A DNA stretch of 64,000 bases, taken from Stylophora pistillata (taxonomy: Eukaryota). The stretch is taken from contig NW_019217823.1 in assembly GCF_002571385.2 (NCBI RefSeq), positions 306,035-370,034 on the forward strand, written 5' to 3'. Position numbers and translations under genes: made by a program. Below, in pieces: positions 6,139-56,918 of the stretch (within the stretch, counting starts at the first letter, position 1; each line of letters starts with the position of its first letter). Below the pieces are notes generated by a model. It saw only the letters and a list, made by a program, of their open reading frames with translations. It was not told where the DNA came from and ran no database searches.

Positions 6139-7988
6139 CCACAGCGAATCAAAATCAACTCATTTATATTGGCATAGTTGTGGAAGGTCTGATAGCAGCC
6201 ACAAGATCGCTAGTTACTCGGAAGAGAACTAATTTATCTTGGAAAGAGAGTATTTATCTCAGTGCTCGAAGACAGGCTTGCCTGACCGCTGAACCGATTC
6301 AAAACGGGTATTTTCCCTCTAGAAATAGGTGTGATGTAATGTATTTGTTATCAAAACATGTCTAAATTAGAATGAATGACTTAGTGAGCAGGGGGTTTCC
6401 CAAAATTGTTCACTGACCCAAATTGCTATACAGTCTATCTGCTTTAACGCCCTGTTCATAATCTTTTATGTTAGGAGAGCTCAATACTGCCTCGTAAGTT
6501 GGTGATCGATTCTGTGTTTGCTGATCTCTTTCTATTCGCTACTGGATATGTCCACCTACGAAGGTTAGTTCTAATTTGATTCGTTTGGGTGATAAGCATC
6601 ATTTAAGGAAGTAATAAGTGATCACTCCAACAACTGCTCGACTATTTGATGTCCTAACTTAAACACCACGAACGGAAAGCACACAACGAACCGACTCTTG
6701 ACGCGCGAACCTCCAGTCTTTTTTTATTCCATCTTCGTCGCTCTCCCGTCAAAGCGTTTTATACTTCGCCAAATGAGCTTGGCTTAAGTTAAAACTGATT
6801 GTCTCAATTTCTCACGTTAAAATCCGCCTTTGCAGGCGCTTACACGCCGTCACCCAGAAGGTGTGTAGAAATAAGCTTCCTAGTGAAGATTCGTGGAATC
6901 ATAAGCAGGAAGTTAGATGCATATATTTAACCAGGCCACAAATGGTATCGGAGCCAGGGTATGCAATTTTTTGACGAAAGCGTGTTCATTTGGTCCAATA
7001 TCACGTCATCCAACAAAATCATCTAAGAGTTCTAGGATTTACTGGGACGGTATATCTTGTTACTCGTATCGTTTCAATCGAAACTTTCAGAACGAAAAGT
7101 GTCTGTCAGATTCTTCGCACATGTTACACGCGGACCCACGTGAAATGACACGTGTTTTAGCGATTCATTATGTAATGTTTTGTTTGTACAGTGGACCTTT
7201 GATCTAATGGATTGACATTTGAAACTAATTGCTGTACATTAACTTGATCAGTGCTTTTAGCGAGATAGGACATTCGTCGACATCGACATCTAGGTTAGGT
7301 TGTACTGTAAATAGGCGCAAATCAGATTAAATCAATTTTAATTACAGTATACGACTCGAAGTTTATTATAGTGTCTATCACGCACAGAAAGCATTCACAT
7401 GGTACACTTTCCTACCTATTGTTGAAATTATTCTTTCGCGAGGGCTCTTATTCATATTGCCTCTCCAAGTCCTATTACTCTCATTGCGATAATTCTCGGT
7501 AGGCCATAAGCAGGTGAGGTCGCGGAGAAACCAATTTGCTTTTTATGATGTTGCTTTAAACAAATGTCTTAATCATATAAGGACTTTATACAATAGGCGG
7601 TAAATGACAGTTAGACTACATAATCGAGTGATCCAGGCAGGATCTTTCGCTCTTTTGATTGGCCATTAAACACTCGAAACGTCATCTTTAGAAAGTCTTT
7701 ACGGTGGCCACTTTATATTATTAGCTTTGTTGATAAAACCAAATTATTTTGACAGAGGTAGAGTTCTGGAGGCTCTTAACAATTGTTTTAATCTTTTTCA
7801 GCCCACTTTTTGATGAATGGTCATGATTTCAACCACTATTTTTTATTTGGTGCTTTGAGAGTAGCATAGCACAAATCATTTGAGAAGTTCCTCATCATCA
7901 GTTAACACTTTAAAAGTGAAAGTGAGAGTGAAAGGGTTTTGACGCACTCTATGAGCGAACTATAATTACATCAATTTTTATTTTGAAG

Positions 7989-10900
7989 ATACCAGCGGCT
8001 CAAGCTTTGGAGATTTTTCTGGAGAATTTTATGGTAAGATTCATTCGGCATCTTTTTTGTGTTAGATAAACGTGTGGTAGGTAAACCAAATACTGATCTA
8101 GATATTGCTTTCTAGCCTGCAGAGCAGGTGTAATTTGGGCGAGCGAGTGCTTCGTATTTTCTTAGCGAAATATAGCCGCAATCTTTGATTTTAATCGCAG
8201 CGGAAGGCTAGGGAGAGAGAGAAATTTGTAATAAGGGGATGAGTGACAGTCAATGATAAGAAGAGGGGCTGGGGTGGGGGTGAATATCACTTCCCACCCC
8301 CCATTCCGTCGACTTTGACACCAAATTAAACATGGCCGGTTGAATAAACGATCGCGCGCTTCTTAACTCACCCTAATAAGACCCCTGCACTGCAGGCTAA
8401 TTGCTTTCTTTTATTCGTTGCATGCTTCATCAATCAATGTTCTTGTTCAAACGCGAAAGCTTCACTGAAATCGTATTTCGGTGCATGAAGAAACCGCTCA
8501 TTAATTAGGAATTCAATAAAGCTGAAATGACTTATTTTCAAACGAAATTCTCCAATCCTCTCTTTAGCCGCGCCAAGCAAACCCTGCAAGGTTTTCGTCA
8601 AAAAGTGTGTGTTCGACGTCAATGTAAATGGAGGTGGTCCCGTAGCAGTCGGCACTCATGCTAACATCACCGGCGTCTCAGGGAGTCAACCAACGGGTAC
8701 AATTTATTTGTGTAAATAGTAATTGATTTCTTATGTAACATTTTGGAAATATAAAGTTCAAAATAATCAACAAGGATACTCTGTTAACGATGCTTTCTAC
8801 AGCGTTTTCAATTCTCTTACTGGGCCATTTCTTATCTGTTTCAGAGGAATACGAAAACTCGCCCTCTCCGCAGAGCCACGAAACTGATTCGAAGTCTTAC
8901 TATTACACTAGGAATTATGAGGGAGATTATTGTCCTCACAATTATTATATACAAAAAATTGTGGCAGACTGGACTCCAAAACCACTCAATGGAATTCTTA
9001 TCCAGGAAGGTGAGATCGAAAGAGCGGCTCCCAATACATTATGACTTTTATGGGTGAGAGAGTCTACAATTTGCTTATCATTTGAATTAACAGTTCTTTT
9101 CTAATCTTAATGTTGCACATTGTTATACTTTCACTAGGTGAATTTGATTTCCAGTGGTCTGTCGAATCCTTTCTTGAAAATCCAGAAAAGTTTATTCGAG
9201 AAATGGACACCTGTGCTGGTTCGCTGAGGGAGGAAAAAGAACTGTTCATACTGCGCGGTATTTTGCCATGCCTAGAGCAAGAAATGTGGGGCAAGTCGGG
9301 TTCTAACAACATTGATGTCTACAAGGTCCTTGCTCATGTAAGCAGCAGCCGAGGTAGCGGTGACATTGCAAAGCATTCTCTACAACAACTTCAGCATCTG
9401 CTATACAGGGATTGTATTCAGAGTGCTAAGCAAAATTTGTTGAGTGTGGAAAAGATACTACGATTAACAATCGTTTCCCCAGATGGAGCATTCAAGGAAG
9501 AGGCAGACTCAATACGACTTTCTAGGCTGAAAGTATACGGGTGCATTCTCTCGGAGCTGATCATCCACCAGAATCAAGCAGGGTTCTCTAAAATTGATTC
9601 AAAGAACAACTTGAAGCAGCTTCGGGAAATTAAAAACTTTTTCAGTAAGATCTCCTGGAAAAAGAAAGACATTTTAAGATACTCTATAGAGTTCATCCAG
9701 CAAGCCATTTCTTACCTTACGCAGCCCCTCAATAAGACACTGACTTCAAATTTAGGAAATTACCTCGAGGAATGCAAGAGATACTTTGCAAACTCTGGCA
9801 TTTCAAATGAGGAGTTGTCACTTCTCAAAAAGCTGAAGAAATCTGGAATAAAATGGTGCGAGCTGCACTGTATACTTTATTACCTGCACGGGAAGGTATG
9901 TGTCTTCTATTTATGCAGAGTCCCAGAAATGTTTCTTTCGGCTGCTGGTTCGACCACGCCACCCATATATGATTATCTTAAAGCAATCACAATCAAATTA
10001 GAAATCAAATACTTTATTTAATAGTCAAAATATATATATGGCACCAATCAGACCATTTTGTGTAAATCAGTATAGGTGTTCTGTGAAACATAAATTTATA
10101 AATTTCATAAATTTCACTTTAAAAAAAGCAGGTTGTACCAATTCTGTAGGTCCACACAGAACGTCCGGAACAGGGAAACCAAGAGTGGAGGACCATGGAC
10201 CTTCTAGATCTTGTGCTGAAGGCTCATCTCGATGGGGGAGGAGGAGACGACTGGAAGTTTTGTTTGCTGGCGTCATCTATACTATCAGAGATCGCAATGA
10301 AGAATGCGATTAAAGGTAAACATTTTCACAGGAACATGAAGCTGTCCAATACCGAGAAGGAACATGCTTACATACAATCCTTTCATGCAAAAACCGATTT
10401 GACCTCATTTATTCTGATAGACATAAATTCTTAGTAATTGCACTAAACGAAATAAAAATCTCATTCTATCCTTATTTAATTAGTATGAATTTATACAAGA
10501 GCCCCTAAGGCTGCAGCGATACTTTCAACCTCCCGAATTATAGATGATTGAGCTACCTGTGACCATATCTATATAGGTGAGGAATACCTACAATTTATTA
10601 GCCAAGCATTACCATGACAATATAATATACATTTTTTTCGTTCAAAGCATTGCGATTAAAGGCAAGTTCATGTCTGGATCATCTTCGTAAAAATGAAAAA
10701 GCAAGTAAGAGACCAGAGTGCAGAGCTATAATTGACCGCTTCTCTAGAGAGATGCTGTTTAGTCCTGATAGTTCTATCACCAGCTTGTTGGTAACACATT
10801 TCTATGACAACCAAACTGAGCAGTACACGCTTCCGACAGAGCTCCACAATCAGCACCTAGCGTCAAGTTACAGGACGCACAATTTGGAAATTGACAACGT

Positions 10901-13900
10901 GGTAACTACTGAGCCAAGTCGTGAAACCTCGCGTTGTTTTGTCAGTCACGGTGTATTGAAACGACAAGAAGTGGCGGTAAAGGTCCTAGCCGTTTCTAAG
11001 GGGGATCTCGCACCGAAAGAGTCATCAACGCAGTCGGAGGCGATGAAGCGACTACGTAAAGAAGCATACAACCTGTGGCAACTAGGCAACTTAGAGCTGA
11101 ACCATCCAAACATCCCTTATCTTCTCGCTTACAATACTGTAAACCTTCCTCATCACATAATTACTCCATATGAAAAGTACGGCAATCTTGTCCACTTTGT
11201 GAGGAGCTCACGTGAATGCAGGCCTTTGTCTTCAGGTACTCTTTACAAAATAATAATTGGAGTCATAGAAGCCCTTCAATTCCTGCATCAAAAGCTAAAT
11301 TTGGTTCATCGAGCTGTTACGGCAGAAAACGTTCTGGTTGGCGATGGTTACGTTCCCAAACTTGGTGGAATGCATTCCCTAGGGGAGCTACAACGCGGAG
11401 TAAACAAGGACGGTAAGATTGGTCAACTCTCAGAGCTGCTCATGATCTTTTTTATTCTATAGTTTCATTCAACTCAGACTAAATCTGTAAAGATAACTTA
11501 AGGCAAGTTGATCCCTTATTTGCAAAGACGTTGATTTCACAATTGGGAATGAAACATTTCAGTGGGGGGAATGACGCGCGACTTTCTACTCTGCTCTCAC
11601 GTACTTAGGTAACAGTTCACCTGACTACGATTATGCCGAGAACTACGATGGCTTAAAAGATTTCATCGGCGAGGAAGATGAAACATTATCGGTGAGATAC
11701 AAAGCTCCAGAGACTCTTTCAAGTAATCGCTATTCCATTGCGTCTGATGTGTGGGCTTTAGCAGTGTTTTTGTACGAGACGCTCACCTTAGGTTGTCGTC
11801 CATACAGAGGCTTACAAAAGGATGAAGATGTTCGCCGTTATGTACGTATAAACTATTGTATTCTTAATTCGAACCCTAACGGAATAATCTCCAAACTATT
11901 GTTGCTAATAGTAATACAAATTCAGAAGGTTTGTTTCATCTATTTCGGTCAGGAAGAAGTCTCAACGGCACCCTGCGAAACAATTTCCCGATTTTAACAG
12001 ACGTGCTGTCTTTTCTACAAACACCTAATGTACTCAAAGGCACTGTCGTTACGCTTAAAAAAAATATTGATACAGGCATCTGTCATAGCAAGGCAGCGTA
12101 CATAACAATACACATTTTAAGCTTACCGATTTCATCGTCATGACTTTTGCAGTGGTTTTATAACGTGTAAAAGAACAAAGGTTGAAGGACTTTAGCCCGA
12201 TTGTAGCCATTTTAAAATATCATCTTAAAAGGAATCTGTGCTTCTACTTTTGCAGCATTGATGAATTAGATCTTCTATTTCTAGGTGATAAAGAGTGCAA
12301 TCTTCTATTTTCATTGTTTGAATCGAAACGTTACACAATTCAGCTGTTAAGACAAAGCGTTCTCATGTAATCCTAAGGTTTTGCAAACGACCGACGATGG
12401 AATATTAGAGATATTACCCAAAGAAAGTTGCATTAAGGATGATGAATACAGCCTAATGAAGCAGAGCTGGGAAAAAGAAAGGAGTAAAAGAATCGACCTG
12501 TCTAAGCTCAGAGAAAAATTCATAGATATGCGAAAAAAGATAGCATGCTCAGGTTGGTGATGTTTTCTTCACTTTAACGGTATCACGATGAAAGCTCTAT
12601 GCTATAAATTATCACATGAAAACTCAAGGAAAACATTTCCTAGTTTTGGTGACTATGCCGAAGCGTCGAACTTCCAACTTTCACATCATGAGCGGAAAAC
12701 TAACCTCATGCATTCCACGAGCTTGATCGCGAACTTCGGTCGGTGAAGTTCATGAGCAACGGACAAAAAGCTAGGAGCGATTCGTCTTTCTATGTGGAAG
12801 ATGGGGAGAGCGTAAGTTTTCAGATGAAAAACGCGCCGTTTATTGTGTAGCTAACCCGCAAGAGAAAGAGAAGGAAGGGCTGGGTGCGTAGCCAGTGTAA
12901 GTCAAATTTCAACAAGATTCAAATCAAATAATTTTTTAATTTTTTTTAACTTTTTGTGCTCGCTTTTTACTTTTATAAATATATATATATATCTATATAA
13001 CTGCATATATATATATATATATAGAATGTGTGGTAGTCGGAAAAAAACAACTACAGATACATCCCTACAGACCTGTTGCGGTGTTTTGCGTGTCGGAATG
13101 ATGAGGTGTGGTTGTTGTAGCGCTACTTAAAGTCGTTTGCAGTGAGCCCGATGTATGTGTCTGTCGTGCTGTTGTCTTTACGTGTAATGGTAGCTTGGTA
13201 TATGACAGATTTTTGGAGGCAGTTTCCGTCTAGAGGGCAAGAGTTTTTCTGTCGGCAGTTGCATTTCTTGTTGTTGTTTGCGGTAGAGGTGTCGGTTGTG
13301 GCGGTGGCGTTAGTCTTTACGTGGGAGGTGAGGATTCTTTTGTTGTGGTTGTCGATGATTTGTTTTGTATTGTCCATGCAGCTGTAACTAATTTTGATTG
13401 TGTTTCTGTTGAAAATTCTGCGGAGCTTATGATCTTTGGGGAAGTGTTTGTCAATCAGCGCGAGGAATTTATGTCCGATGTTAGTGCTGGTGTTCTTGGT
13501 GAAAGGCGGGTTGTACCAGAGGATGTTGTTGCGTTGGCGGTTCTTGCGACTTTGTGTGTGCGTTGGTTCGTAGTGGAGTGTGTAGCTGTAACCACTGGTG
13601 TTTAATGCTTTCTGGTAGGCNNNNNNNNNNNNNNNNNNNNNNNNNNNNNNNNNNNNNNNNNNNNNNNNNNNNNNNNNNNNNNNNNNNNNNNNNNNNNNNN
13701 NNNNNNNNNNNNNNNNNNNNNNNNNNNNNNNNNNNNNNNNNNNNNNNNNNNNNNNNNNNNNNNNNNNNNNNNNNNNNNNNNNNNNNNNNNNNNNNNNNNN
13801 NNNNNNNNNNNNNNNNNNNNNNNNNNNNNNNNNNNNNNNNNNNNNNNNNNNNNNNNNNNNNNNNNNNNNNNNNNNNNNNNNNNNNNNNNNNNNNNNNNNN

Positions 13901-16900
13901 NNNNNNNNNNNNNNNNNNNNNNNNNNNNNNNNNNNNNNNNNNNNNNNNNNNNNNNNNNNNNNNNNNNNNNNNNNNNNNNNNNNNNNNNNNNNNNNNNNNN
14001 NNNNNNNNNNNNNNNNNNNNNNNNNNNNNNNNNNNNNNNNNNNNNNNNNNNNNNNNNNNNNNNNNNNNNNNNNNNNNNNNNNNNNNNNNNNNNNNNNNNN
14101 NNNNNNNNNNNNNNNNNNNNNNNNNNNNNNNNNNNNNNNNNNNNNNNNNNNNNNNNNNNNNNNNNNNNNNNNNNNNNNNNNNNNNNNNNNNNNNNNNNNN
14201 NNNNNNNNNNNNNNNNNNNNNNNNNNNNNNNNNNNNNNNNNNNNNNNNNNNNNNNNNNNNNNNNNNNNNNNNNNNNNNNNNNNNNNNNNNNNNNNNNNNN
14301 NNNNNNNNNNNNNNNNNNNNNNNNNNNNNNNNNNNNNNNNNNNNNNNNNNNNNNNNNNNNNNNNNNNNNNNNNNNNNNNNNNNNNNNNNNNNNNNNNNNN
14401 NNNNNNNNNNNNNNNNNNNNNNNNNNNNNNNNNNNNNNNNGCCTACCAGAAAGCATTAAACACCAGTGGTTACAGCTACACACTCCACTACGAACCAACG
14501 CACACACAAAGTCGCAAGAACCGCCAACGCAACAACATCCTCTGGTACAACCCGCCTTTCACCAAGAACACCAGCACTAACATCGGACATAAATTCCTCG
14601 CGCTGATTGACAAACACTTCCCCAAAGATCATAAGCTCCGCAGAATTTTCAACAGAAACACAATCAAAATTAGTTACAGCTGCATGGACAATACAAAACA
14701 AATCATCGACAACCACAACAAAAGAATCCTCACCTCCCACGTAAAGACTAACGCCACCGCCACAACCGACACCTCTACCGCAAACAACAACAAGAAATGC
14801 AACTGCCGACAGAAAAACTCATGCCCTCTAGACGGAAACTGCCTCCAACAATCTGTCATATACCAAGCTACCATTACACGTAAAGACAACAGCACGACAG
14901 ACACATACATCGGGCTCACTGCAAACGACTTTAAGTCGCGCTACAACAACCACACCTCATCATTCCGACACGCAAAACACCGCAACTCCACCGAACTCAG
15001 CAAACACATCTGGACACTTAAAGACAACAACATCAATTATTCCATCACCTGGCGCATCCTATCTTCCCACCTGCCCTACAACAGCTCAAGCAAACGATGC
15101 AACCTATGCCTTAAAGAGAAATTCCTAATCATCTGCCACCCAGACCTATCAACACTCAACAAGCGTAACGAACTCGTCTCTTCCTGCCGACACAGAAACA
15201 AAGCACTCCTACGCAACAGCTGACTTGACACTTTTCACACTGCATAAACCATGTTAATTAGCAATTAGTGTAATATATAAGCGATGGTATCGCATTATTC
15301 TGCCATCAAAATCCCCTGATGAGTGGACAACCACGAAACAGGTCTGTAGGGATGTATCTGTAGTTGTTTTTTTCCGACTACCACACATTATACCCGCTCT
15401 ACTATTTGTATTGAGCACTGTTTCACGAACACCAAGCTTAATCCCTATATATAAATATATAGGTGCAACACTGCATCTCTGGATATCTTGTTTACTGATG
15501 CAGATTGCAAAATGAAAGCAACAAGCCAACGCAGCAAATTATAGTGATTACATCCCTCAACTGTTTATCCCCTTTTATTTCGTTTTTACAAGGTGAAGAG
15601 GAAACGCGGCTTGACCCACCAAGTTTAGAGATGAGCATTGAAAGTGTACGTTAAATGTTAACGGATATGTCAACTTTGTCTTTACAGAAACAAATTCCAC
15701 GTTGGATATTAACTCATTCTCTAGATACCGTCTGCTTTGATAATCATTATTATAACATAACTAAAGTAAAGCGCGCGCTCTGATTGGTCAACGCTGTGAT
15801 GTTTACCATTTGTTAACCCTACAAGCCTTGAAGCTCGAAGAGAACAGTGGGTCTTTGTTTATAAAAAGCAAATTGAAGCTTTATTTCTCGCAGAGATTTT
15901 CCATACATCGCTTTCTTTGTTCCACTTCATAGCTCAAAGTATTTAGCGTCTTTCTTGTCGTATTTTAGTACTCGCATTTTGAAGTACTGGGCTTCAATTT
16001 CTCCTGTGGACTCAGATGTTTTTATTCTAAGTCCATGTAAAGAGAACATTATAGTTATCGCATGCCTGAGCTAAATTTCTTCCTCTATACGTTCAAATTG
16101 AACAGGAACCTCAGCAATCACAAGGATCAATTGAGTCTGAGATTTATACAACCATTTCAGGTAGATATTGGTTTTACTGTTACGTAAACGGTAAGCAAAC
16201 TCACCCCCAAACGTTTTTACCAAGCTAAAATTTCGAGACCTTATTACTGAAAAACGAATCGACCAGCCCACCTCACCGCACTTATCCCATTTGCTGTGAT
16301 TATCCTAAGATCAACATTTCATTCGCAAAATGTTCGTGTATTATATTCGTGTAGAATATTCGTTTTTATTGGCCTTTAAGTTTTTGGTCCAAGTGTTCCA
16401 TCGCAAATGTTATTAAATCCCATTAATTGAGTTTGGCCCAACAATAAGCGAGCTGGACGATGTTCTTTTCTAAGGTAAGACATTTTAATTACACAATGCC
16501 TTTCTCCCCTCATGAGTGTAAATGGTTTCTGGAGAACTGTCAGGGAAGCCGGACAAATAGCTAGGGGGTAGGGGGGTAAATGTGATAACCTAACATCCCA
16601 TCCAGGAGGAGCAGGAATGCCTCTTGTCATTCTACAAAAACAAAGATAGGCCACTCTACACAAGTATAGACTTTACCTCTTACGTTGTCAACTCAGGCAA
16701 AGAACTGGTCATTACTTTCTTGTTTTGTTCAGAATACGGCGACGTTGAATCAACTTCAGGAACCATCTACTGTGAAGAAGACACATACCAGGTAATTACA
16801 TTTGTCAAACTCACAATAATATCTACATCATTTATCATTGTTTCCAGAAATGAAATATTAAATGACAAAACAATTTGACTGTTTTAATACCATGGATCTC

Positions 16901-19900
16901 ACTTAAATTATACATTTTTTATTTTATTATCATCATTATTGTTATTATTATTTTTGATATTATGATAATCTTCCTTATCATTATTATCAGTCATTATTAT
17001 TATTATTATTATTATTAATATTATTATATGCACTTTGTGCACTTTGAATTTAATGTTATTCATTTATTGTTTAGCCTGTATGTGTAGGGTATGGTGCTCC
17101 TGAAACGCTTGTGGATCTACCGACAAATTATCAACAGGTTTGCCCAAACTGCTTCAAACTTTTAGCCAGCCCACTTATATTCTACGCCATTACTCGAAAA
17201 AAATTGTACAACTAAACATACCACTACCATTTGATAGTGGTAGTTGTAAAGGTGATATTAGTAGTGGTATATGGATAATGATCATATTAAACGCAATGAT
17301 TATTATGTTAAAGTATGATAGAGATAATCGTAACAAGTGCAACATAATCAATGAGGCATTTTAGAACTCACTCAAGTTAAACTCGTTATGTTTAAGCTTT
17401 TTCATATTCACCAATGTAACTGTTTTTTGAATAAAGTTCAGTCGGATTGATCATTTTTACTGCTGGTACTGAACTGCTGACACCTTCTTTCATGCAGGAT
17501 GCCATGAAAGAGAAAATTCCTGTAGGAGATAAACAACACTTGAGGAGACTTCTTTGTCTCAGCAATAGTTTTCTTCTTCCCATCAGTCGGATAGACCATT
17601 TAGATTCCCGCAGTCCAGTCGTTGACATTGTAAGTAATACGTCATCATTGGATGCATGAGTCAGCCGCAGCTTTATGAGAATATAAACCAGCTTTGCTCA
17701 TCGACGATGTTACCAGGATTTAGTAATAGTAATCGTAATGTAGTTTATTTCTGACCACTTGCAGCCACGAGGCTGAATTACTGGTACAGTAAGGTTGAGA
17801 ACAGACATCAGTATCTCAGGCGTCTTTGGCAGCCGCTTCAGTCCATGATCCCACCTTCCCACCCATCCCATCCCAGGGGAGGACATTCATCACACAGTAA
17901 TCTCGTGTGTGGGAAATTAACGTCTCCTACCCCAGTCCTGTAAGAGACGGGACCTCCATTTATTCGTCCCTATCCGGGAACACAAGAATATCTAACCATT
18001 TCTTGATGTTATATAAAGGTAGCAAATTCTTCTCAGTTATTTTAAGACCTTGAGTGTTGGTCCTGCCGGGCTCGAACCCTCGACCTTCCGCATAACAGTC
18101 CAGCGCACTATCCTTTGGGCCATCTGGGCGTCGTATTCATTGGTCAATAAAGTCTTTAAAGGCACTACACAAGACCTCTTAAAAGAAGCCTATTCAAATT
18201 TCCCCTGTTTCAAATTAATTATGTTTGAAAGAGCAAACATGAGAGCGAAAAGCGAAAGAGATTATTCGACCCTTTTTCGTTTACTAATTCTTTCCTCGTC
18301 AGATCTCACCACGATCACCCCTTGGGAATTTGAAGGAATTTATCCTTAGCAGAAGATGTCCGTTGGAAAACATCGTCACTTTCCTCTGCCAGGTTGCCAC
18401 AGCTCTACATTATCTTCACGTAAATCATATCGTGCACGGAGATCTTCGGCCTGAACACGTTTATGTGGTGGCTCCAGACCAGGTAAGTATTTTATAGTGA
18501 ACACTGTAAAATTTGCTCTCCAGGATAGAGTCGATCGCCGTTCGAGTGTAGGTGAGCTTAGACGTATCACATTCAAGTTGATGAAATAACCACCTTATGC
18601 GGGAGATGCACCATAATTAAATTGGAAAAAAATATGAGATATATTTAGTATATTATGATTTTCTTCAGGTCCAGCTTGGTCGCCTCGGTCGCTCCAAATC
18701 TCTAACAATGAGTGCCTATGAAGCCACCAGCACTTCATGTGTCGTAGAGGCTGTCATGCCTCCTGATTCCACTCGTTGGTGAGCGTAAACTCGAAACATG
18801 ATAATCTGTTCTCAAGGAAATATTAGTTTTCTACTGGGCGTCAACACCCTATTATAAGGCTATAATTGTGGAATTTGCATCCGCAACAGGTTCAGGTTCG
18901 ATTACACAAAAATGTTTGAAGAGTTTTAGACCTGAATGACATAAAGTTGCGACAAAATGAAATATCTAGCCTTAAAGGAAATCCTCGTAAGGAAGTTAAA
19001 ATATTTAAATTTACTTATTTTTATCCTTCATTCATTTTTTTATCCTTCATTCATTTTTTTGTAGCAATAAAAACAAAGTAGGTGTGTGCAGGTAAAATTA
19101 AATCGACTCCTAAGAAAGAAGTGGGAAAGCTCAACAGAAAGAGTTTAAGACACGATTGGTTTTCTTCCATGTTAGGAGCGCACCAGAGGTGATCCAAGAT
19201 AGCCTCTTTTCTCACGCTAGTGATGTGTGGGCGTTTGGAATCTTAGCATGGGAATTGTACACTGCATTTGCAGCTGGACAACAGAATAGAATCGCTGCAT
19301 TGCCCTACGGCAATATTCCAGCAGATAAGGTACGTTCATGCCTATAAGACACTCAAACCGAAAATAGGATCTGCCGAAATTAATTTAAATCTAACTAGAG
19401 TTTCAATAAAAGCCAGTAATTCAAAGGAGGATGAAATAGAATCAGACTTTGTTGTATCTGGATGGAGACTTAGCAAGATTTTTGATTCTTCAGATTCTAG
19501 ATCATATGAAAGAAAATGGACCTCTTGATCAACCTAGCGGCTGTCCTTATTGGGTTTACATTCTAATGCATCAGTGCTGGACATATGAACCAGTGGAGAG
19601 ACCTCCTTTTATTGCAATCATTGATTGTCTCTCAAGAAGGTATGATGCACTTTATAAGCGGATCAGAAGAGAGCGATTCTCACACTTGACTGCCTTAAAA
19701 CTGACTACTTACCTTTCACTGACTCTAAGAGTCATCCTCTCAATTTTTTCCATCTGCTTCTTTTCAATTTCTTTTACCAGCCAATGATGCTAGTTGTGGT
19801 GAGGTATGATTTTTTTTTTCACCTGGATTTCAAAATTCTACTAACACATCTTGCACTTTTTTAAGGGAACCGATGTTGTCATGGGTGATGCAATTGTGGC

Positions 19901-21126
19901 TGAACACACATGAGAAGAGTGAATGGCCGGTTTTGTCAGTATCCCAGCCTGAGGATGCTATTCACGTGACAAACGCCGAGGAACACCCATCCAGAGAAGA
20001 TATTGAGAAAATGTGCTCTCAAGGCTTTTTTAACCCTCACAAATACCTTTATGTTGATAGCGTTCGCCAAAACGAGACGGACACCGCTGAAGTATACGAC
20101 TACGCCTACACAGATTCTCAGTTGCCACCACCGCCTGGTTCCCCTGCATTCCACCAGTCAACCCCAAGTAATTTATCTGATGGAGGGTTAAACGTTGCTG
20201 GCCAGTATAAAACGAACCAACCGCATAGTGCGACAGAAATGGTGTTCGAAGAACCTTCACATTGGATAATTACAAATGACGAAGGTAAGACTGATTCAGC
20301 TAAGAGCAACGATTCCTTCACTTCGCACCTTGAAAAATCCCACTCAGTTGCCAATGAGGACCAATGTCTCCAAAATCACAAAGATAGCGTAGCTGGCGTT
20401 TACTCGCTCTATGGTGATTCTAATTATAAGATATTTGTGGACGAACATTCTTCTGATCAAGCGACAGGTGGGGCTAGGGGCCACTCAACTTGTGATGAAA
20501 GTGCCAAGGATTACTCTGAAGAGGAGCAGATTTTGCATGCAGGCTACAAAGACTTTGCCTTAACCAGAGAGTATTGCATACCAATGAGAAATAACCAAGA
20601 GAAGCCAGAAACACCAGGTTACATCAACGTGCCAGCCAAGACCATTGCAAAAACACCAGGTTACATCAACGTGCCAGCCAAGACCGTTGCACAGCATTCC
20701 CAGTCAGCACACAGCAACGAAGGCACTGTCGTAGATTCCTATACGTGCGTGGACCTTCTTGGTCCAGTTTTTTGGCAAAGATCGACAGATATTGTTACCA
20801 CAGAATCCTTTAGTTGCAACGAACATGACCTGGAGCACCAGCCAAGCTTAGAGTTACATGAAGATATTGCCATTCAACTTCTATTGAAGGATGCAGACAT
20901 CCTTTACCTCAGAGAGGTGCAAAGAAGAAAATATGAAGAAAAACTACAGGAGAGTTGGTATCAAGACCAGAGTTCACCACTTCAGCAAGTACTCTTTCAA
21001 GAACATCTAGATGTGCATGCAAACGTTTCGACAAATTTGGATGTGGGCTTACGAAGTTCTATGTATGCAGCTATGAAATCCATCGGGTCAAGGTTGGTGG
21101 GCTGCGACACAGAAACTACCTTATAA
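7989..21126 (+). CDS. Gene A: multi-exon helical-domain + tandem pseudo-tyrosine-kinase + Tyr-rich tail protein (>=~1480 aa; start exon unresolved)
   Basis: Hand-spliced GT-AG exons: 7989-8033, 8845-9009, 9138-9895, 10150-10315, 10648-11412, 11609-11841, 12378-12552, 15593-15645, 16106-16160, 16733-16791, 17498-17629, 18303-18482, 18669-18778, 19176-19329, 19494-19639, 19866-21126. They join in one open frame. Domain 1 motifs: VAVK, HRAVTAENVLV, KLGGMH, RYKAPE, SDVWALAV. Domain 2 motifs: HGDLRPEHV, GRLGRS, RWSAPE, SDVWAFGI, CW...RPPF. Exon sizes and phases match genes B and C. The first exon (7989-8033) and micro-exon 16106-16160 are less certain. Confidence 0.88.
8113..8399. mobile_element. 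MITE with short TIRs
   Basis: tagcctgcagagcagg ... cctgcactgcaggcta inverted termini. Confidence 0.65.
13025..13620 (-). mobile_element. Inverted, internally deleted copy of the same Penelope-like 3' region (inverted pLTR-like arm)
   Basis: Reverse complement of 14441-~14987 joined through 'aac' to ~15337-15388, with a few substitutions, one of which creates a stop. Confidence 0.85.
14441..15389 (+). mobile_element. Penelope-like retroelement 3' part (RT thumb/linker + GIY-YIG endonuclease + 3' UTR), Naiad-like
   Basis: Open frame 14441-15223: WYNPPF..NIG..FL.LIDKHFP..IFNRNTIKISYSC, CNC..CPLDGNC, VIY...TYIG, RYNNH, CNLCLKEK, LNKRNEL. A hammerhead lies in the 3' UTR. The strand is strongly C/A-rich. 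It sits in intron 7 of gene A next to (TA)n. Confidence 0.9.
15311..15353 (+). ncRNA. Minimal type I hammerhead ribozyme
   Basis: ATCCC-CTGATGA-GTGG acaa CCAC-GAAA-CAG gt CTG-TA-GGGAT. The CUGAUGA/GAAA core is intact, with stem I ATCCC/GGGAT, stem II GTGG/CCAC, short stem III and a GUA cleavage triplet. Confidence 0.88.
16918..17028. repeat. Degenerate (TAT)n microsatellite
   Basis: Runs of attattatt in a gene A intron. Confidence 0.8.
17930..18132 (-). mobile_element. tRNA-derived SINE in a gene A intron
   Basis: Minus strand reads gatggcccaaaggatagtgcgctggactg...gggttcgagcccggcaggacc (A and B boxes), then a SINE body. Confidence 0.7.
20609..20690 (+). repeat. 42-nt coding tandem repeat (TPGYINVPAKT x2) in the gene A tail
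   Basis: aaacaccaggttacatcaacgtgccagccaagacc occurs twice, in frame. Confidence 0.9.
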
Positions 21127-25900: not shown

Positions 25901-28900
25901 AATAGGAAGAAAAGGATTAGCTTTTCGTGAGAAAGGGTATGTCACGCAAACATCCGTTTTCGTCATTACTGCTCTTTTCGTTTCCGTTCGAGGGGATAAA
26001 AAAGGCGCTTGGCGGAACNNNNNNNNNNNNNNNNNNNNNNNNNNNNNNNNNNNNNNNNNNNNNNNNNNNNNNNNNNNNNNNNNNNNNNNNNNNNNNNNNN
26101 NNNNNNNNNNNNNNNNNNNNNNNNNNNNNNNNNNNNNNNNNNNNNNNNNNNNNNNNNNNNNNNNNNNNNNNNNNNNNNNNNNNNNNNNNNNNNNNNNNNN
26201 NNNNNNNNNNNNNNNNNNNNNNNNNNNNNNNNNNNNNNNNNNNNNNNNNNNNNNNNNNNNNNNNNNNNNNNNNNNNNNNNNNNNNNNNNNNNNNNNNNNN
26301 NNNNNNNNNNNNNNNNNNNNNNNNNNNNNNNNNNNNNNNNNNNNNNNNNNNNNNNNNNNNNNNNNNNNNNNNNNNNNNNNNNNNNNNNNNNNNNNNNNNN
26401 NNNNNNNNNNNNNNNNNNNNNNNNNNNNNNNNNNNNNNNNNNNNNNNNNNNNNNNNNNNNNNNNNNNNNNNNNNNNNNNNNNNNNNNNNNNNNNNNNNNN
26501 NNNNNNNNNNNNNNNNNNNNNNNNNNNNNNNNNNNNNNNNNNNNNNNNNNNNNNNNNNNNNNNNNNNNNNNNNNNNNNNNNNNNNNNNNNNNNNNNNNNN
26601 NNNNNNNNNNNNNNNNNNNNNNNNNNNNNNNNNNNNNNNNNNNNNNNNNNNNNNNNNNNNNNNNNNNNNNNNNNNNNNNNNNNNNNNNNNGGTAATAAAA
26701 AAAATCAGTGAAACTCTACTTAGAAGTTGTGATGCATCGCTGCGAGTAAAGTTTTACTGTATTTTCTTGATCGCCGTGAATGTCCTTCCAAATACTCAAG
26801 AATTAAGCTTACTTTGTAGACGAACAATCTGGCAGTAGACCCTCGAGGAAACGGATCCAATATAAAATAAACGTCAAAAATGTTACTGGCGCTGTTGCTG
26901 TTGGACCTCATGCAAGTGCGGGGATCAAAGGTAATTAGAAATAACTGAAAAGAAACCGAGCACACGTTATGATGATGATGCCCATCATATTAGAGCATTC
27001 AATACTGCTGAAATATCGAAGAAAAGTATCAATTAAATCTTCCTTAAGCCTCTGTCATCTTAAACCCGTATACTGCTTTTATTCTCGATATTATCAGACA
27101 AGTAGGTCAAGAGGAAGAAAAGGATTAGCTTTTCGTGAGAAAGGGTATGTCACGCAAACATCCGTTTTCGTCATTACTGCTCTTTTCGTTTCCGTTCGAG
27201 GGGATAAAAAAGGCGCTTGGCGGAACGCAAGAGAAAAGGCTAACTGAGGGAAAATTGGTAATTCGTAGAAAAACAAAGAGCTATTCATTTGCCTTTTGTT
27301 ACTAGCATAAAATTATAGGTTCAGTAAAATTCGCGTACATTTAAGAGCTTGAAGCAACGAAACGATGAAGATTCAAGTTCTGAGGGACTTTTGAATTGGG
27401 GCGCCATGAACCAAAAAGCGATGAAACGGTACAACGTCATCATGTCTAAACACGTGATGCAAACTGGAAAGATCAGAAACAAAATATTGTTAGCGTCCAG
27501 TGTGGAATAAGAAAAATACAGAAGGCAAAAATCAAAATTTGTCACAGAACAATGGAAGACGTTTTGAAAAATTCGTTTGGAAAAACCTGGCACGAGTTTC
27601 AAACTTCTAACTGTTTTTCAGGTGATGAAGAAGTTCCTACTGAGACCGGACAATATCCAGACAATTCCGGAAGTGAAGAAACGATCTCTATGTCCAAGTG
27701 GTCAAACGAAGATTACTTCGAGAATCCGGAAAAATTCATCCAAGACATGGATGACAACGCTGGTCCACTCAAAGACGCCAAAGAAGACTTCCTTCTCCAT
27801 AGCATCCTTCCCTATCTAGAAAAAACGTGGGGTAAATGTCCCTCTTCCAACGAAGAAGTATACGAGAACCTCGCCAAAATTTCTTGCAGCGCAAAATGTG
27901 CCAAAGTCGTGAGCCAAGCACTTCATTTGCTTCTTCATCTGACTGGTAAGGACAACTTTGACAACTGCTGCAACAATTTACTGGTTGTGGAAAAAATTGT
28001 AAGATCATCAATTCTCTCCTCCGAGGGATTGTTCAGAAGAGACAGGATCGATTCAGGAAGAGAAATGAAAGAGCTCAAACTGTGTGTGTACAGCCGTATC
28101 ATCTCCTTGCTAGTCACGCATCAGTCTCTGAAAGGTGATTCCTTTATAAATTTTCTGGGACAAGATTTGAAAAAGCTTAAGGATGAGCTGAAGACATTTG
28201 GCTCGCAGCTGAGAAATAAAGCGAAGGATGGTCTCCGATATTCAACAGAGTTTATCATCAAAGCAATTAACCATCTTTTAAGGCCCAACGATAACTTGCA
28301 GGACTTTCTAGATGAATGTCGAAAGTTCTACCAGAACCAAGAAACCAAACTTGATGATTTGAAGGCTCTTAGTGAGCTTAATTATAAGAAGAAAGGCGAG
28401 TGGCGGATTGATCTACATTACATCGCTCTTCATCTCCAAGGAAAGGTAAGAGCTGAAAGTAGGAAGGAAGATTGAATTCGAAAATTAAGAAAGAGAAACC
28501 TAAAGTATGATGCCGTTCTATTGTAAAAACGTATGGGTAGCAAATACCAACAGCCTTTTCAACTGAAAGTGGACTTCCTTGAATACAAGTACTGGATCGG
28601 ACAGTTGTCAGTTACGAACTCTGAGCTCACCTGTTGATGAACACGCCAGGTTTTAAATATGTACACAAATGAAGGTGTAAATTATGGAAAATTATTATCA
28701 CCAAACAAAAGAAATTAAATTTCAACCTTTCATTGTAAAAAATAAGGGAAGCCACATGTTGAAACATGTTTCATGCAACAAACTGCATTTTCCTTTTTCT
28801 ACAGGTGCGCAGTGAACGTCCAATTCCACGAATGGAGACCGAGAGAAGAGCTATGAACCTGCTCAGACTTCTCGTATTTAAGTACCTTGATGGAAATGGT

Positions 28901-31900
28901 GGACAGGACTGGAGGTTTTGTATGCTGGCAGCTACAATATTCTCAGACATTTCAATGAAGAACGAGACAAAAGGTGAAACAGAACTATCAATAGCAAAGA
29001 GTATTATTTCTGTTCGCGTTTTGAAGGTCAGAATTATATGACGTTAACGCAGGGGCAAAAAGAAATAGTGCTAAGGCTATACTGACAGTAATTATGAAAC
29101 GGGCCATTAGTGGATCAAGGAGATCCCGTCTTAGTTCAAACTCGAAACTTTGCCAGCCAAGTCTCTCGATCCTATCATAGTCTAATATAAAGGTCATTTA
29201 TTTGTTATTTTCCCCAAACAGAAATAAGGACAGAGGCAGGTAGTAGCTTGGCGTATCTTCTAAAAGATCCCCAAGTACGTAAGACTCCGGAGTGCAAGGC
29301 CATCATTCAGAGCCAAGCCGAGAAAGCGCTGTTCTCTCCTGATGTAGAAACCAGGACGTTTCTGACCCATTCTTTGAGTGAGAACATAAATCGGGAGGTA
29401 GAACTTGACACAATACAGCACACCAAACACCTTTCTTGGAAATACAAGACTCAGACACTGGAAATCAATGATACAACCATAAGTAGAAGCTCGACCTGCT
29501 TTGTGAATCATGCCATGTTCCAGAGACAGAAGGTGGCCGTTAAAGTTCTCTTGGTGAAAAGGCAGCATCTCGTGGAAGAGAACCCAAACCCTTCGGCTAA
29601 GGAGAGTCTGAAACGAGAAGCCGAAAACCTGAGACTATTAAACAAAGAACGGCAGGCAAAATTTCCAGTTTTGTTGGCATATGACACTAAAACTCTGCCA
29701 TACCACCTCATTACCGCATTTGAAAAATCAGGGGACCTGTTGCAGTTTCTTCGGAGGTCGCGTGGGAGAAATCCTCCTCTTCAACCAGTCCAGCTCATTA
29801 AGATGCTGTTAGATATCACTGACGCTCTCCACTTTTTAGAAGTAAAAGGTTTGGTTCATCGCGCTGTAATGGCGGAAAATGTACTCGTCGGAGACAATTA
29901 TATCTGTAAATTGAGTGGCATGCAACACCTTCGGCAGGTTACCAGCCAGGGTAAGACATGATTGAAGCTTGATNNNNNNNNNNNNNNNNNNNNNNNNNNN
30001 NNNNNNNNNNNNNNNNNNNNNNNNNNNNNNNNNNNNNNNNNNNNNNNNNNNNNNNNNNNNNNNNNNNNNNNNNNNNNNNNNNNNNNNNNNNNNNNNNNNN
30101 NNNNNNNNNNNNNNNNNNNNNNNNNNNNNNNNNNNNNNNNNNNNNNNNNNNNNNNNNNNNNNNNNNNNNNNNNNNNNNNNNNNNNNNNNNNNNNNNNNNN
30201 NNNNNNNNNNNNNNNNNNNNNNNNNNNNNNNNNNNNNNNNNNNNNNNNNNNNNNNNNNNNNNNNNNNNNNNNNNNNNNNNNNAACCATGCCGACCTCTAT
30301 ATATATATATAGAGGTCGGCATGGTTTCAAAATTTACGATTACGAAGACTTTAATACTAGCTCTACGTTTTTAAGGTGAAAAATGGTTGGGAGATCCTGC
30401 CTTCTGAGCGGTGTTTTGAAGAAAAGGAATACCAACTGATGCAGCAGTGCTTTCAGTTCCATCCAAAAAAGAGACCCAAATTACTTGACGTCCAAAAAAG
30501 CCTTTGCGAGATGAATGAAAATGCAGGTGATTACACGTGTTGACCTTACTGGCACGTAGACGCTTCACCAACACTCAGCAATTATATCATGAATAATTCT
30601 AGACATCAATAGTTGCTTGTAAAAAGAATGCCCAGCTTGACATAAAAACTATAATACATAACTGTGAAATTACAAACGAACTCTAAACGATGAAAAATTG
30701 TGCTACAACATAGACGTGAAAGTTAAAATCGAAGTTTTTTCTTTTTCAGACGAGGAACAAGCACGGCTTGACCCACCTCCCCTTGACTTACAAGTCACAT
30801 ATGAATTTGTAAGTTTGGTTACTTTATTCAATTTAATATCGAGTGGACGCTGCGAAATTCGTTAAATATCAACCGAATGTATTGACCAATCACAAACTTA
30901 CACTCTCATATCGTATTGAAAACCTTATCCCAATAAAAACTTGAAGTAAACTGAGTCAAACGACTCCCCTCGAGTTTCCTCGAGTTTCAAGAGGAATTAT
31001 TAATGACTACATTTGCTATGGATTAATTAGTCATTTTTGTTTTCTAGCCTGCACGAAATGCTGAAGATATAAAAAGCTTTTATTCAGGTACACGTTTATT
31101 GTTGTCAACGAAACAGCTATGTCATTCTTTATTAATCGGCCTCAAAGGCGAGCCAGAGAGAAGAGTCCCCTTTCAGTTTATTGGACTGAAAAAAATGTGT
31201 TGGGTCGTGTTTGTTGTTGTGGTTGTTTTGTTCTGCTTTGTTTCTTTGTTTTTTTGTTTTGGTCTTTTGTTTTTTNTTTTTTTTTTTTTTCATTTTACTG
31301 ATTTTCTTTTGTTTTTGAGGTGTTTCAGTTTAATTATTTCACTGTGAAAGAGAAAGTGATTGAAAGTTCATGTTATCTTGAGTAGAATAAATCGGGTAGC
31401 AACGAGTTTTTTGTGATAAAGCCTTTTATCGCAACTATAAAAAAAAAATTGGATTTCTGCATTTTATAATTGAGTAACAAGTTTCATTCCTTAGATCCTG
31501 TTTACGAAGACTGTAATTTCCTGTCTACCGAGCATGACCAACCTGCGTCAAATGGTAAAGTGTGATTTTAGTTTCCGACAATAAAATTGACAGTCCGACC
31601 TACTGACTGATAGACGAACTAACTGTCTGATTATCATTAGTTATCAAAGTGAGCTTACAACTGTTACTTCTCTTTCAATTTTTTTCCCCTCAGGTCTTTA
31701 CTATGTACACAACTTGGTGTCAGATGAAGAGAGAGCAGNACATAGTCATGATCAATTCAACTATTTACTTTTTTTCAGAGAGCCAATGAAGTCCTGGATT
31801 ATGAAGTTATGGCTGCAAAATCATGACAAAAGTAAATGGCCAGATTTGTCCATCCGTCAACCACAAGATGCTTGCCATGTAACAAATTCAGACCAACACC

Positions 31901-32868
31901 CCTCTAGCGATGTCATAGAGAAGATGTGCTCGCCTGACTTCTTCTCCAAGCACGAATACAAATACGTCAGCCGCACTTTTTTTACGACAAGCAGCGACGA
32001 TGACTACTCAAAAGCATACGGAACATCAGACATGCAAGAGATGAGGAATGATTTAGAGTACCAAACAGCTTGTGGTGAATATACAACGGAAGAAGGAACC
32101 CCAGAGCTTGTGCCAGTCCCCGAGCCACAAAAGACACCCAACAACGATGAATCTGGTTACTTATGTCCTGTTTCAATTAAAATTGAAGATCTGAGCTCTA
32201 TTGAGAGCAACCAGGGAAATGTTAGCGGCGTAGCAGATTTCCCAAGAAGCCATGAACAAAAAAACGTAGTCTCCAGTACAGGAACTTTTTATCTTCAAGT
32301 TAAAAAGGTAAAGAAAAGAGTTGAAACACATGACGTCAGTGCAATCGAGGCGAATGAAGACAAGGTACCACTGATGGATGACAAACCTCATTTGAATTAC
32401 GTCAATCTGGGGCCACAGCCAGATCAACATCACGCTGCCTTTTATCAAAAGATTGAATTAGTTCCCAAAGAAGGGAGCTGTGAACTCGAAGAAGATGCGA
32501 AGAAGGCCGCGGCGGCTTGTGAGAAACCAACTGAAGAAATGAATGGAGCAGTTTATTGCAAAGTCAAGAAGACGAAAAATCCGCACGAATTAAAGGACCA
32601 GCTGGTTCCCCTGAATCATCAGTTGTATGCAAACGTGGACGCTAGCAGTGTTACGACGCATACCTTGCCACTCGCAGACATGGAAGGTGAACAGTCTGAC
32701 ATGGAAACTATACATAAAGAAATGGAAGCGGAGCAAAATTTCCGTCAGACAGACGAACATTCGTGGAATACAGTTCGCGAAAAGTATGGTGCCGAGAAAA
32801 ATGGAAGTAACTCTTCCCTTCCAGTTTGGTTAAAGGATCCCGAATTAGAGGTCGTGTTTTATGTTTAA
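22949..32868 (+). CDS. Gene B: paralog of gene A, incomplete in this assembly (APE exon in the N gap; pseudokinase 2 exons absent)
   Basis: Exons: putative start 22949-22964 (ATG TCT TCG GAC GAC G|gtaagt), 27622-28445, 28805-28973, 29222-29950 (VAVK, HRAVMAENVLV, KLSGMQ), [gap 29974-30282], 30376-30526, 30750-30808, 31048-31087, 31495-31554, 31694-~31738 (ends at 'n'), 31779-32868 (EPMKSWIMKLWL...KWPDL box and Tyr-rich tail). The start exon is inferred from phase and from the equivalent 16-nt exon in gene C. Confidence 0.8.
25483..27226 (+). repeat. Near-identical 536-bp direct repeat flanking an N gap (probably an allelic overlap artefact)
   Basis: 25483-26018 versus 26691-27226 differ by a few SNPs, and both copies abut the gap. 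Confidence 0.85.
30283..30326. repeat. Perfect 44-bp palindrome centred on (TA)n, adjacent to a gap
   Basis: aaccatgccgacctct-atatatatatat-agaggtcggcatggtt. Confidence 0.8.
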
Positions 32869-35606: not shown

Positions 35607-38600
35607 ATGGAAGGACATGGCGGTAAGTTCTCATTATAAAACCGAATCCTCGATGTCTTTTCTCAGTCATTCTTATTCAAGCGGACCCAAATACGAAGTT
35701 TTAAGCGTTTATTTGGATTTTAAGAGTCTTGTTTAAGCGAACAATCTCAAACGTGATATTGTGCTCTAAAAATCTCACTTCCCCTTGGATTGAGCTATTA
35801 GTTTCTGCACTCACAAGCTCGAGTGTTAACTGTATCATAATAAATGTAGTTAGCAGTTTGAAAGATTCACAATTTCCAAATTCTCCCGACAGTAATTCAT
35901 GGTTAACAATAAAGTAAAATCGATCATCTTTAGAAACTATATTAATTGATCTAGAAACTAGCGATAACTCATGCCTTGTATCTCATGTTTATTTGGCTTT
36001 ATCGCTTATTTCGCGCATCATTGAATATAATCTCAACAAGTTTGTTACGCATAGCTCTAAAACCTTTTAAGCAAGACTTTAAAAGAAGAAAAGATTTGAA
36101 GATAAGAAAAGATTTCTTCAAATTTTCCTTCTAGGAATTTTAACGGCAGTTACAATGGCCAAAATTGCTACTTCTTAATTTGCGTTATCAAATAATTATA
36201 GCAGTGCTTGCAGTTTGGTTTGTGACAGTCAGCACTTCCGACACCAAAGAGAAAGAGAAACTCGATAACATTCCATCACATCCCGCCCGGATCAAGGGAA
36301 AAGTCCCCCATTATAGGACTTCCTCTCTAACCTTGACATTAAAATCAGTAGTCTTACTTGAATTAGTATTAATAGATTGTTTAGAAAAATTAAGTCAACC
36401 CTGACACTGACGCTTCTGAAGCTCTCGGGGACTTAACCGTATGTTTTATTTACCTTCTGCTCAACGAAGGGGTGCAGTAAAGGAATTTACATGAAAGCTA
36501 AAAATTATCGAGACGTTTCGCACCCAGTTGTTCAATCGACTCGTACTCAAGCTTGAGTCGGTTCGTGCTCAAACCGCGGGTCGATTCGTACTGAAACCCC
36601 TGTCTTTGAAATTAATGGATCAACAGGAAAGAACATCGTGTAGTGACATCAATGCAGTCAAAATGAGATATTCTCCAATAGTAATGTTTGCAACATTTGT
36701 GCAATGAAAGAAGCGTGAGATATTCCCAATGAAAAGTTTAACTCGCACTCTCTATTATTTATTTTAAGTATTCAAGCAGACTTCGGCTGCACCGACTGTT
36801 TATGTTAACTACATCACGAAAATATCAGGGAGCGGTGCCACAGCTGTAGGACCAGGCGCTCAAGTTAATAATTTTCAGACAGTTCCATCAAGAGGTATTT
36901 ACATAATTGTGCATGCGACTGTTCCATTATCAACTTGCTGATAGAAGTAAGAAGCTCTTCCAATGTGTTTAACTTAGCCTTACCTATTCTGCTTTCAAGA
37001 CTGATAAACGCGCAGCATGATAAAAAGGGACATGAAAGAAGTCATAAAGTACAGCTTTCGGATGAATGCTTGCCCTTTATTTTCGCACCAACAAAATATA
37101 GGTGGCTTTATGTATTATGAATATGAATTGCTTGTGATTATTAGGTATGGTGCTTATTACCCATTATGTTAATTAAGTGGTCACACTACAACTATAAATC
37201 ATCCAGAGGTTTATTTGTTAAAAATTATTATTAATAAATTTTCAACAATTCTTCCAGGTTCAAAATAATCTCAGGACACGACAATAACCTCTTAACAACT
37301 ATCTATATCATTTTAAAAACCTTCCTTCATTAGCACTGAAGACTATATACAATTAACCACGGATATTACTCTGAAATAGCAGTTGAAGTTGAAGTCGAAA
37401 GCAGAGATTCTTACTTGCTACTAAAATGCCCAATGTGGATATTTTTAGTTGAAAAGACGGATATTAAGATCCTCAGGCAAATTTAAATACTAGGAATCGT
37501 AATTAAACGAGAAAAGTAACCACTTTGGCTATAGGTTTCATCCTTTACCAAACCCTAGACTTGTAAAACTTGAATTCAGATTTTTCTCATTTGAACATTT
37601 CCATATAGAGGATATCCGTGTTCATCCAAATGACGCGAATGTTAGCCATGGAGGTGCAAGAAACATTAACGTTGGGCGAGAGGAGCAAGTATATCAGGAT
37701 ACGTACACATACGAAGGGGCCAGACCAGGAAGAAGATCTTCCGCGTCTGAAAGGAACCCAGGCAGTTATTGCCTTCCCAACGTCACAGAAGAATATTATC
37801 AGCAGCGGTTCGGCTCAAAGTGGACGCCGAAGCCAACTAAATTCATCGATAGACAGCAAGGTAAAATTTTAAATGAGCCTTGGTAAGAGCCTAAAGTCAA
37901 GTGAGAAAATATGGTCGAGTTGTTGTAAATCGTTTAAACCAAATCACCTCAATTTTTCCTTTTTACTTCCTTTCCCTGCTTTCTATATTTTTTTTAGAGT
38001 GAAGCCTATTACTATGGTAATGCTGATCCCACCCTTTGTTTGGGATTATTATTGGCCGTGTGAGTCACACAATATATGATGAAAAAACAGGAAGGATTCA
38101 AATTTACCATTTACTTTCGTTTTCGTTAGATTGTGCAGATGAAACTTTGTCTAAAGAATCATTTCTACAAGATGTCGATAAATCTCTGAAAGAATTTGAA
38201 AGTTCAGGTGGACCGCTGAAGGAACAAAAGAAAGAGGTCATACTACTGCAGGTCCTGCCTTATCTTGAACAATCGTGGAGAAAAGCGTCTTCACAAAAAA
38301 TGGACGCGTACATGATCCTTGCCAAACTAAGCAGTTGCAAAAGCTGTGGTGAAGTTGCAAAGCATGCTTTGCAGCAGTTTCAGTATCTGCTCTTTAGAGA
38401 TAACCTGGACAGCTGCAAGGAGAGCTTGCTAAAAGTGGAAAAAATTGTGAGATCTTCCATCATCTCTTCAGACGCAGTATTCAAGGAAGAAGCAGACTCT
38501 GCGCGCGAAGTGAGACTGTCTGTGTACAAGCGCATTCTATCCCTAATATGCATTCACCAAATTCAGGCAAGTTTCTCCACAGTTGACTTCAAACAAGATT

Positions 38601-56553: not shown

Positions 56554-56918
56554 CTGCAAAAATTAATGCAGTGAAAATGGAGTAAAGTAAATCAAAATTA
56601 GTAAATTAAATTAAATCTGGATATATATTAAATCTTCAAATTCCAGAAGTGATTAACAGATAGCTTCTCCTCGCGGCTTTGACACATTGTTCAGCAAACT
56701 GGTGATGAAATTAGGGAGACGTATTAGCCCTAGGAAACAAACTGGATGAAACATCGATTTATCTGTCCTAATTTTCAAAGAAATGTATGGTGGCTGGTAG
56801 GGGGAATTCCCTGCTAGGCAGAACCTGGGAGTAAATGGGTTCGCAGAAAGAACCATGAAGATATACGCGTCCGCTGTGCTGGTTAATCAGGCTCAAGTGC
56901 GAGCAAACTTTTCCTTAA

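Follow-up and report, generated by a model that had tools for sequence, protein, structure and literature searches.

LOC111322652 of the coral Stylophora pistillata, here termed paralog A, encodes a protein with two tandem kinase-like domains, the first of which is a conserved pseudokinase of the tyrosine kinase (TK) group, lacking the catalytic aspartates of its HRD and DFG motifs. The gene lies in a 64,000-nucleotide window of contig NW_019217823.1 (assembly GCF_002571385.2, positions 306,035 to 370,034, forward strand), to which all coordinates below refer. It is spliced, joins a helical domain to the two kinase-like domains and a tyrosine-rich tail, is under purifying selection, and encodes no hydrophobic membrane segment. 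With modest confidence, we lean toward a role for the product as a noncatalytic cytoplasmic phosphotyrosine scaffold and not as a membrane-breaking executioner. Three tandem paralogs on the same strand (A, B and C) fall within the window, and a fourth is located upstream of it.

A conserved TK-group pseudokinase

Pseudokinase 1 of paralog A occupies 10896..12530 of the plus strand and is encoded by exons 10648-11412, 11609-11841 and 12378-12552. Its VAVK lysine lies at 10980, HRA replaces HRD at 11307-11315, and glycine is found in place of the DFG aspartate at 11367-11369. The resulting dead-site motif is HRAVTAENVLVGDGYVPKLGGMHSL (11307-11381), and the corresponding motifs are HRAVMAENVLVGDNYICKLSGMQHL in paralog B and HRALMAENILVGDDYRCKLSGMHAL in paralog C. 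The β3 lysine is present as VAVK in paralogs A and B and as VIVK in paralog C, and all three paralogs carry the αC glutamate. A preliminary description of this region, made from the sequence alone, had reported identical substitutions in the three paralogs with this lysine and glutamate kept. Both the motifs and the register against ABL1, in which the alanine sits at the HRD aspartate and the glycine at the DFG aspartate, agree with that report. No GxGxxG loop is visible in kinase 1 of any of the three paralogs examined.

Assignment of the domain to the TK group is based on several comparisons. The Pfam family PK_Tyr_Ser-Thr matches the exons of the three paralogs with E values of 2.6e-13, 7.9e-17 and 2.3e-19, and the TK-type motifs P(V)RWxAPE and SDVWAFGVxxYE.xTxG are found. 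Among the best 60 PDB sequence matches, all 60 are tyrosine kinases, whether the query is the N-lobe profile, the C-lobe exon or the whole protein. These matches argue against placing the domain in the MLKL/TKL lineage.

Conservation was counted over 17 aligned full-length relatives, a set that includes isoforms and close species, such that the rows are not independent. The residue at the HRD aspartate of kinase 1 is Ala in six rows, Cys in six, Ser in two, and Val, His and Asp in one each, while Gly occupies the position of the DFG aspartate in 16 of 17. Both aspartates are missing from 16 of the 17 rows. The β3 lysine is present in every row and the αC glutamate in 16. The dead state of kinase 1 is common to corals and two anemones, and is thus old. 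Between the three paralogs, the proportion of nonsynonymous differences (pN) in kinase 1 is 0.31-0.35, compared with a proportion of synonymous differences (pS) of 0.78-0.88. Eight valid exon comparisons between paralogs give pN values of 0.17-0.39 versus pS values of 0.70-0.89, the latter near saturation. Because pN is well below pS, the domains are under purifying selection. The earlier view of domain 1 as a pseudokinase maintained by selection is supported, but alanine at the HRD aspartate (6/17) is not a family-wide feature.

Gene structure and the remaining domains

The entire coding span of paralog A is 6548..21126 on the plus strand, with 19 exons and 18 introns, and its product is XP_022781518.1 (isoform X1 of LOC111322652, or P0061; 1554 residues). 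Exact mapping places 1550 of these residues onto exons with AG/GT ends at 7985-21126, and the remaining first four were placed at 6548 via a loose end in the RNA. We checked splicing over 7700-12900 with contigs from four runs, each belonging to a different study; three of the runs are recorded as RNA and one is guessed to be so. The GT..AG joints 8033/8568 and 8696/8845 were seen in three of the four runs, as was joint 9895/10150; the other four joints in this interval were seen in all four, and contigs of every run continue from 12552 into the exon at 15593. Together with the exon map, these joints reveal that 9138-12552, the interval originally singled out, comprises five exons in the middle of a spliced gene. 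This interval does hold the helical domain and kinase 1, but misses the N-terminal motif, kinase 2, a conserved 64-residue block and the tyrosine-rich tail. Likewise, 9138-10860 had been taken for one exon and proves to be three, as the GT..AG joints of the RNA contigs confirm. In one run (X9), splicing goes to an acceptor that lies 18 bases before the usual site (window 9895-10132), which, judging by the window sequence, would introduce an in-frame stop. NCBI isoforms X2-X5 of LOC111322652 (P0003, P0004, P0068 and P0069) resemble chimeras of two adjacent paralogs.

The helical N-domain (residues 120-503; 9138..10877, plus strand; exons 9138-9895, 10150-10315 and 10648-10877) is preceded by an acidic stretch of 119 residues, and kinase 1 is followed by a further 740 residues or so. 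The domain had been characterized as a Leu/Lys/Cys-rich region of about 350 residues. Its length is about 384 residues, with 13.5% Leu, 8.6% Lys and only 2.6% Cys; the net charge is mildly basic at +5. A structure model with a predicted local distance difference test score of 89 contains 20 helices in a HEAT/VHS-like solenoid, and its best structural matches are HEAT, ARM and VHS proteins. Its Atlas neighbours are likewise of the ARM/TPR type, with scores of only 0.75-0.77. The N-domain is thus predicted to consist of stacked helical hairpins of the solenoid type. Model and matches favor the fallback offered in the preliminary description, namely a HEAT/ARM-like scaffold whose likeness to MLKL is convergent. 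Four residues (Glu223, Arg227, Tyr252 and Trp358 in P0061 numbering) show 93-98% conservation across the alignment of N-domains, and possibly form a binding site or a structural core.

Upstream of the N-domain, a symmetric phase 1-1 exon (8568..8696, plus strand) that is spliced in three of four runs encodes a 20-residue RHIM-like β-turn-β motif (8612-8671). The motif consists of alternating hydrophobic residues, a Gly-rich turn and the core [VTFY][AVI][VI]G followed by another hydrophobic residue, with a spacing that we take to be like that of mammalian RHIMs. It occupies its own symmetric exon in paralogs A, B and C. In the upstream paralog, NCBI isoforms X4 and X5 leave out this exon. A profile trained on seven coral instances, with significance taken from 2000 shuffles per sequence, matched the held-out Nematostella P0078, Exaiptasia P0054 and paralog C with 0/2000 shuffles each; identity in the flanking N-terminal sequence is only 8-13%. 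A second, weak copy was detected in paralog C (3/2000 shuffles), and L003 also has the motif. Neither of two Montipora proteins matched the profile, nor did P0056, P0082 and the single stretch of paralog B that was first tried.

The motif is real and conserved, but is no more than a RHIM-like candidate. RHIMs as described in PMC4262963 agree with it in size, in the fixed Gly and in having unstructured flanks, and the insect RHIM-like motifs described there deviate from the canonical core too. RHIM adaptors (RIPK1/RIPK3, insect IMD/PGRP) share with the coral protein a β-turn-β unit of about 20 residues with a fixed Gly, set in a disordered region of a kinase-fold protein. They differ in their core consensus of V/I-Q-V/I-G, and the coral motif is N-terminal and accompanied by no death domain. 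The canonical Gln at tetrad position 2 is present in none of 12 aligned instances. No RHIM family match was obtained in Pfam scans or the Atlas, although short motifs are easily missed by such scans. As for partners with the same motif, only family members scored among 111 proteins, a set that includes no whole proteome. This conserved exon offers a direct way into whether cnidarians use amyloid signalling.

Kinase 1 is followed by an acidic, Tyr-containing linker (15593..17137, plus strand; four small exons) with a net charge of -16 and 7.5% Tyr, and then by a second degenerate kinase domain (17498..19640, plus strand), defined by Pfam and alignment, with HGDLRPEH at 18435 and RLG in place of DFG at 18681-18689. 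Its best matches are ABL, FGFR and TYK2. The Pfam match opens at profile position 48-82 of 258, and neither a G-loop nor a β3 lysine is recognisable in the alignment of paralog A; judged by sequence, kinase 2 begins near αC. Among the 13 rows that have this domain, the DFG aspartate is Arg in all 13, His or Tyr replaces the Asn of the catalytic loop in 11, and the HxD aspartate is kept in six and lost in seven; HGD is gone in Montipora and Nematostella. Locus L001, with an identical exon layout, has Phe at the DFG aspartate. Kinase 2 is therefore predicted to be an inactive TK-type pseudokinase. No other part of the protein is as well conserved: identity to Oculina P0005 reaches 73% in kinase 2, compared with 67% in the N-domain, 54% in kinase 1 and 19% in the tail. 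The last exon (19867..21126, plus strand) encodes a 64-residue REPM block, conserved as far as Nematostella (33%), and a 356-residue acidic tail of low conservation with 17 Tyr. Tails in the family carry 12-22 Tyr per 278-391 residues, many in an acidic context (ELYDDL, ETYEDV, TLYEEI, GYINV). No 19-residue window exceeds a Kyte-Doolittle value of 1.8 in four double-kinase proteins; of the five proteins, P0056 alone has such a window, at its C-terminal end.

Searching 1.84 billion representatives with a profile returned 51 matches, 20 of which were traced in part (10 + seven looked up); most of these are exon-length fragments. The named matches come from scleractinian corals, Nematostella, Exaiptasia (where the only kinase is dead) and, with one protein, Branchiostoma, and the architecture is also supported by relatives from Oculina, Desmophyllum, Montipora and Nematostella. 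The Branchiostoma belcheri protein P0050 (390 residues) has the N-domain without a kinase, and thus the N-domain extends past cnidarians. P0056 joins the same N-domain to one kinase that keeps Lys, Glu, HRD and DFC, which suggests that the family ancestor may have been an active single kinase. This relative provides a handle on the transition from kinase to scaffold. The family, in which both tandem TK domains are degenerate and are joined to a solenoid domain not assigned to a named family, is apparently undescribed: no description was found in the literature covered, including the holozoan TK classification apart from its supplements (PMC8662651).

Possible functions of the protein

As a phosphotyrosine scaffold, the protein would be phosphorylated by an active tyrosine kinase at the acidic Tyr motifs in its linker and its tail, and these motifs would then become docking sites for SH2/PTB proteins. 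Further partners might be held by the solenoid and by both dead kinase folds, and the N-terminal motif might let the protein cluster or enter a RHIM-type filament. Scaffolds of the PEAK1/Pragmin type combine a dead kinase fold with a long disordered region bearing Tyr docking motifs, and are the closest model for how the coral protein may work. The likeness is one of function; the coral protein differs in its two dead domains, its N-terminal solenoid and the C-terminal position of its tail. SCYL1, ULK4 and VPS15 likewise combine a pseudokinase with a HEAT/ARM solenoid, but in the opposite domain order and with non-TK kinases. Tandem expansion of the genes, the motif and the neighbouring GT4-conflict genes lead us to infer an innate-immune setting for the scaffold. 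GT4 is discussed as an immune effector domain that is massively expanded in coral (PMC8195603), an expansion that also makes chance adjacency to the cluster plausible.

A possible, if unlikely, alternative by analogy is that the dead kinases mimic host tyrosine kinases that are hit by effectors of pathogens or symbionts, with binding freeing the motif to form an amyloid-type filament. Kinase 1 has diverged more rapidly than the domains on either side of it in the three closest comparisons, with identities for N-domain/kinase 1/kinase 2 of 0.80/0.71/0.85 (P0002) and 0.67/0.54/0.73 (P0005), and 0.83/0.71 for the upstream paralog. Relaxed constraint explains this divergence equally well, however, and synonymous sites are saturated. 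Tandem copies show domain loss (B) and truncation (C), but the copy number is small, with four in this region of the genomic scaffold. The conserved motif does sit on a skippable exon, yet no protein outside the family among the 111 shares it. Plant tandem kinases are described as intracellular resistance proteins (PMC8761531), and members such as Rpg1 and WTK1-4 resemble the coral proteins in being intracellular, in having tandem kinase/pseudokinase domains and in forming gene families; their kinase lineage is probably unrelated, and the immune role of the coral proteins is putative.

We consider doubtful a related proposal, in which the protein serves anthozoans as an intracellular immune sensor that combines two dead TK domains with a solenoid, with output through noncanonical RHIM-type amyloid nucleation. 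If true, it would give animals an equivalent of the plant tandem-kinase receptors, and would be evidence for amyloid signalling in cnidarians, from which RIPK1 and MLKL are reported to be missing.

Rather improbable is allosteric regulation of an active tyrosine kinase in the manner of JAK JH2 or HER3, whereby kinase 1 would bind ATP through its β3 lysine and tune the partner in trans together with domain 2, which may itself have trace activity where HGD survives. Conservation of the β3 lysine and αC glutamate is consistent with this function, as are the intact residues of P0056 behind the same N-domain and the cation-free ATP binding described for pseudokinases with GFE, GLR, RLG or GFG (PMC6287396). 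However, kinase 1 has no G-loop, retention of the Lys-Glu pair can be purely structural, as described for VRK3 (PMC2639636), and domain 2 has Arg at the DFG aspartate in all 13 rows, lacks a recognisable N-lobe start and has lost HGD in some lineages. The layout is JAK-like in that the protein is cytoplasmic and has two tandem TK-type domains, the first of them dead. It differs from JAK in that JH2 has HGN and DPG where the coral domain has HRA and GM/GL, in its degenerate second domain, and in the lack of any FERM or SH2 match in Pfam scans.

The preliminary description had instead seen an MLKL-type switch, in which the helical domain is a membrane-permeabilising effector restrained by pseudokinase 1. 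In MLKL, a four-helix bundle and a brace of two helices precede a single pseudokinase at the C-terminus (PMC11476962). The coral protein resembles it in that a helical domain, here mildly basic, lies directly against a pseudokinase that retains its β3 lysine but has lost the HRD aspartate and carries Gly in place of the DFG aspartate. The RHIM-like motif could further point to a pathway of the death type. We nonetheless regard this function as highly improbable, given that the model of the whole domain, a 20-helix solenoid of 384 residues with HEAT/VHS matches, argues against an MLKL bundle, although a part of it may be bundle-like, that the domain is not N-terminal, that kinase 1 is TK-like, that a second dead kinase and a long Tyr tail follow, and that MLKL was reported absent from Radiata in one survey and RIPK1 homologs from cnidarians in another. 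The solenoid model and the TK matches point to two of the three outcomes that the preliminary description had named as refuting its switch. Because STRADα, CASK, VRK3 and SuRTK106 also have Gly at the DFG aspartate, this residue is not diagnostic of MLKL, and a helical domain joined to a Gly-for-Asp pseudokinase is insufficient to identify one.

Paralogs, neighbouring genes and assembly

Over the exons compared, paralogs A, B and C are 41-52% identical. Paralog B (26839..32868, plus strand) comprises the motif exon (26839-26930), helical domain, pseudokinase 1, REPM block and tail. One of its kinase-1 exons probably falls within a 309-base gap (29974-30282), and the stretch that leads from kinase 1 to the REPM exon (29974-31770) yielded no kinase-2 exons. 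This copy is either a natural single-pseudokinase variant or the product of assembly loss. Paralog C (36769..53915, plus strand) has the motif exon (36769-36895), helical domain, both kinases (HGDLRAEY and RFG in the second) and the REPM block, directly after which two in-frame stops (52935-52958) cut off a tail of 318 residues with 16 Tyr and abundant acidic Tyr motifs.

Duplications of 98-99% identity lie beside N gaps at 42895-43823/48285-49213 and 25483-26018/26691-27226, and include a kinase-2 exon of paralog C and the motif exon of paralog B. These duplications are likely assembly artefacts. An intron of paralog A contains an inverted duplication of 546 bases that surrounds an N gap, with a retroelement-like open reading frame (ORF) remnant (13075-15223) that is presumably of the Penelope/GIY-YIG type.

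On the minus strand, three ORFs at 44880-45421, 55745-56605 and 58030-59175 encode GT4-conflict glycosyltransferases (PF20706), the last with an E value of 1.8e-95. A gap interrupts the first, which is located within an intron of paralog C. In one Montipora gene model, GT4 is fused ahead of the helical N-domain.

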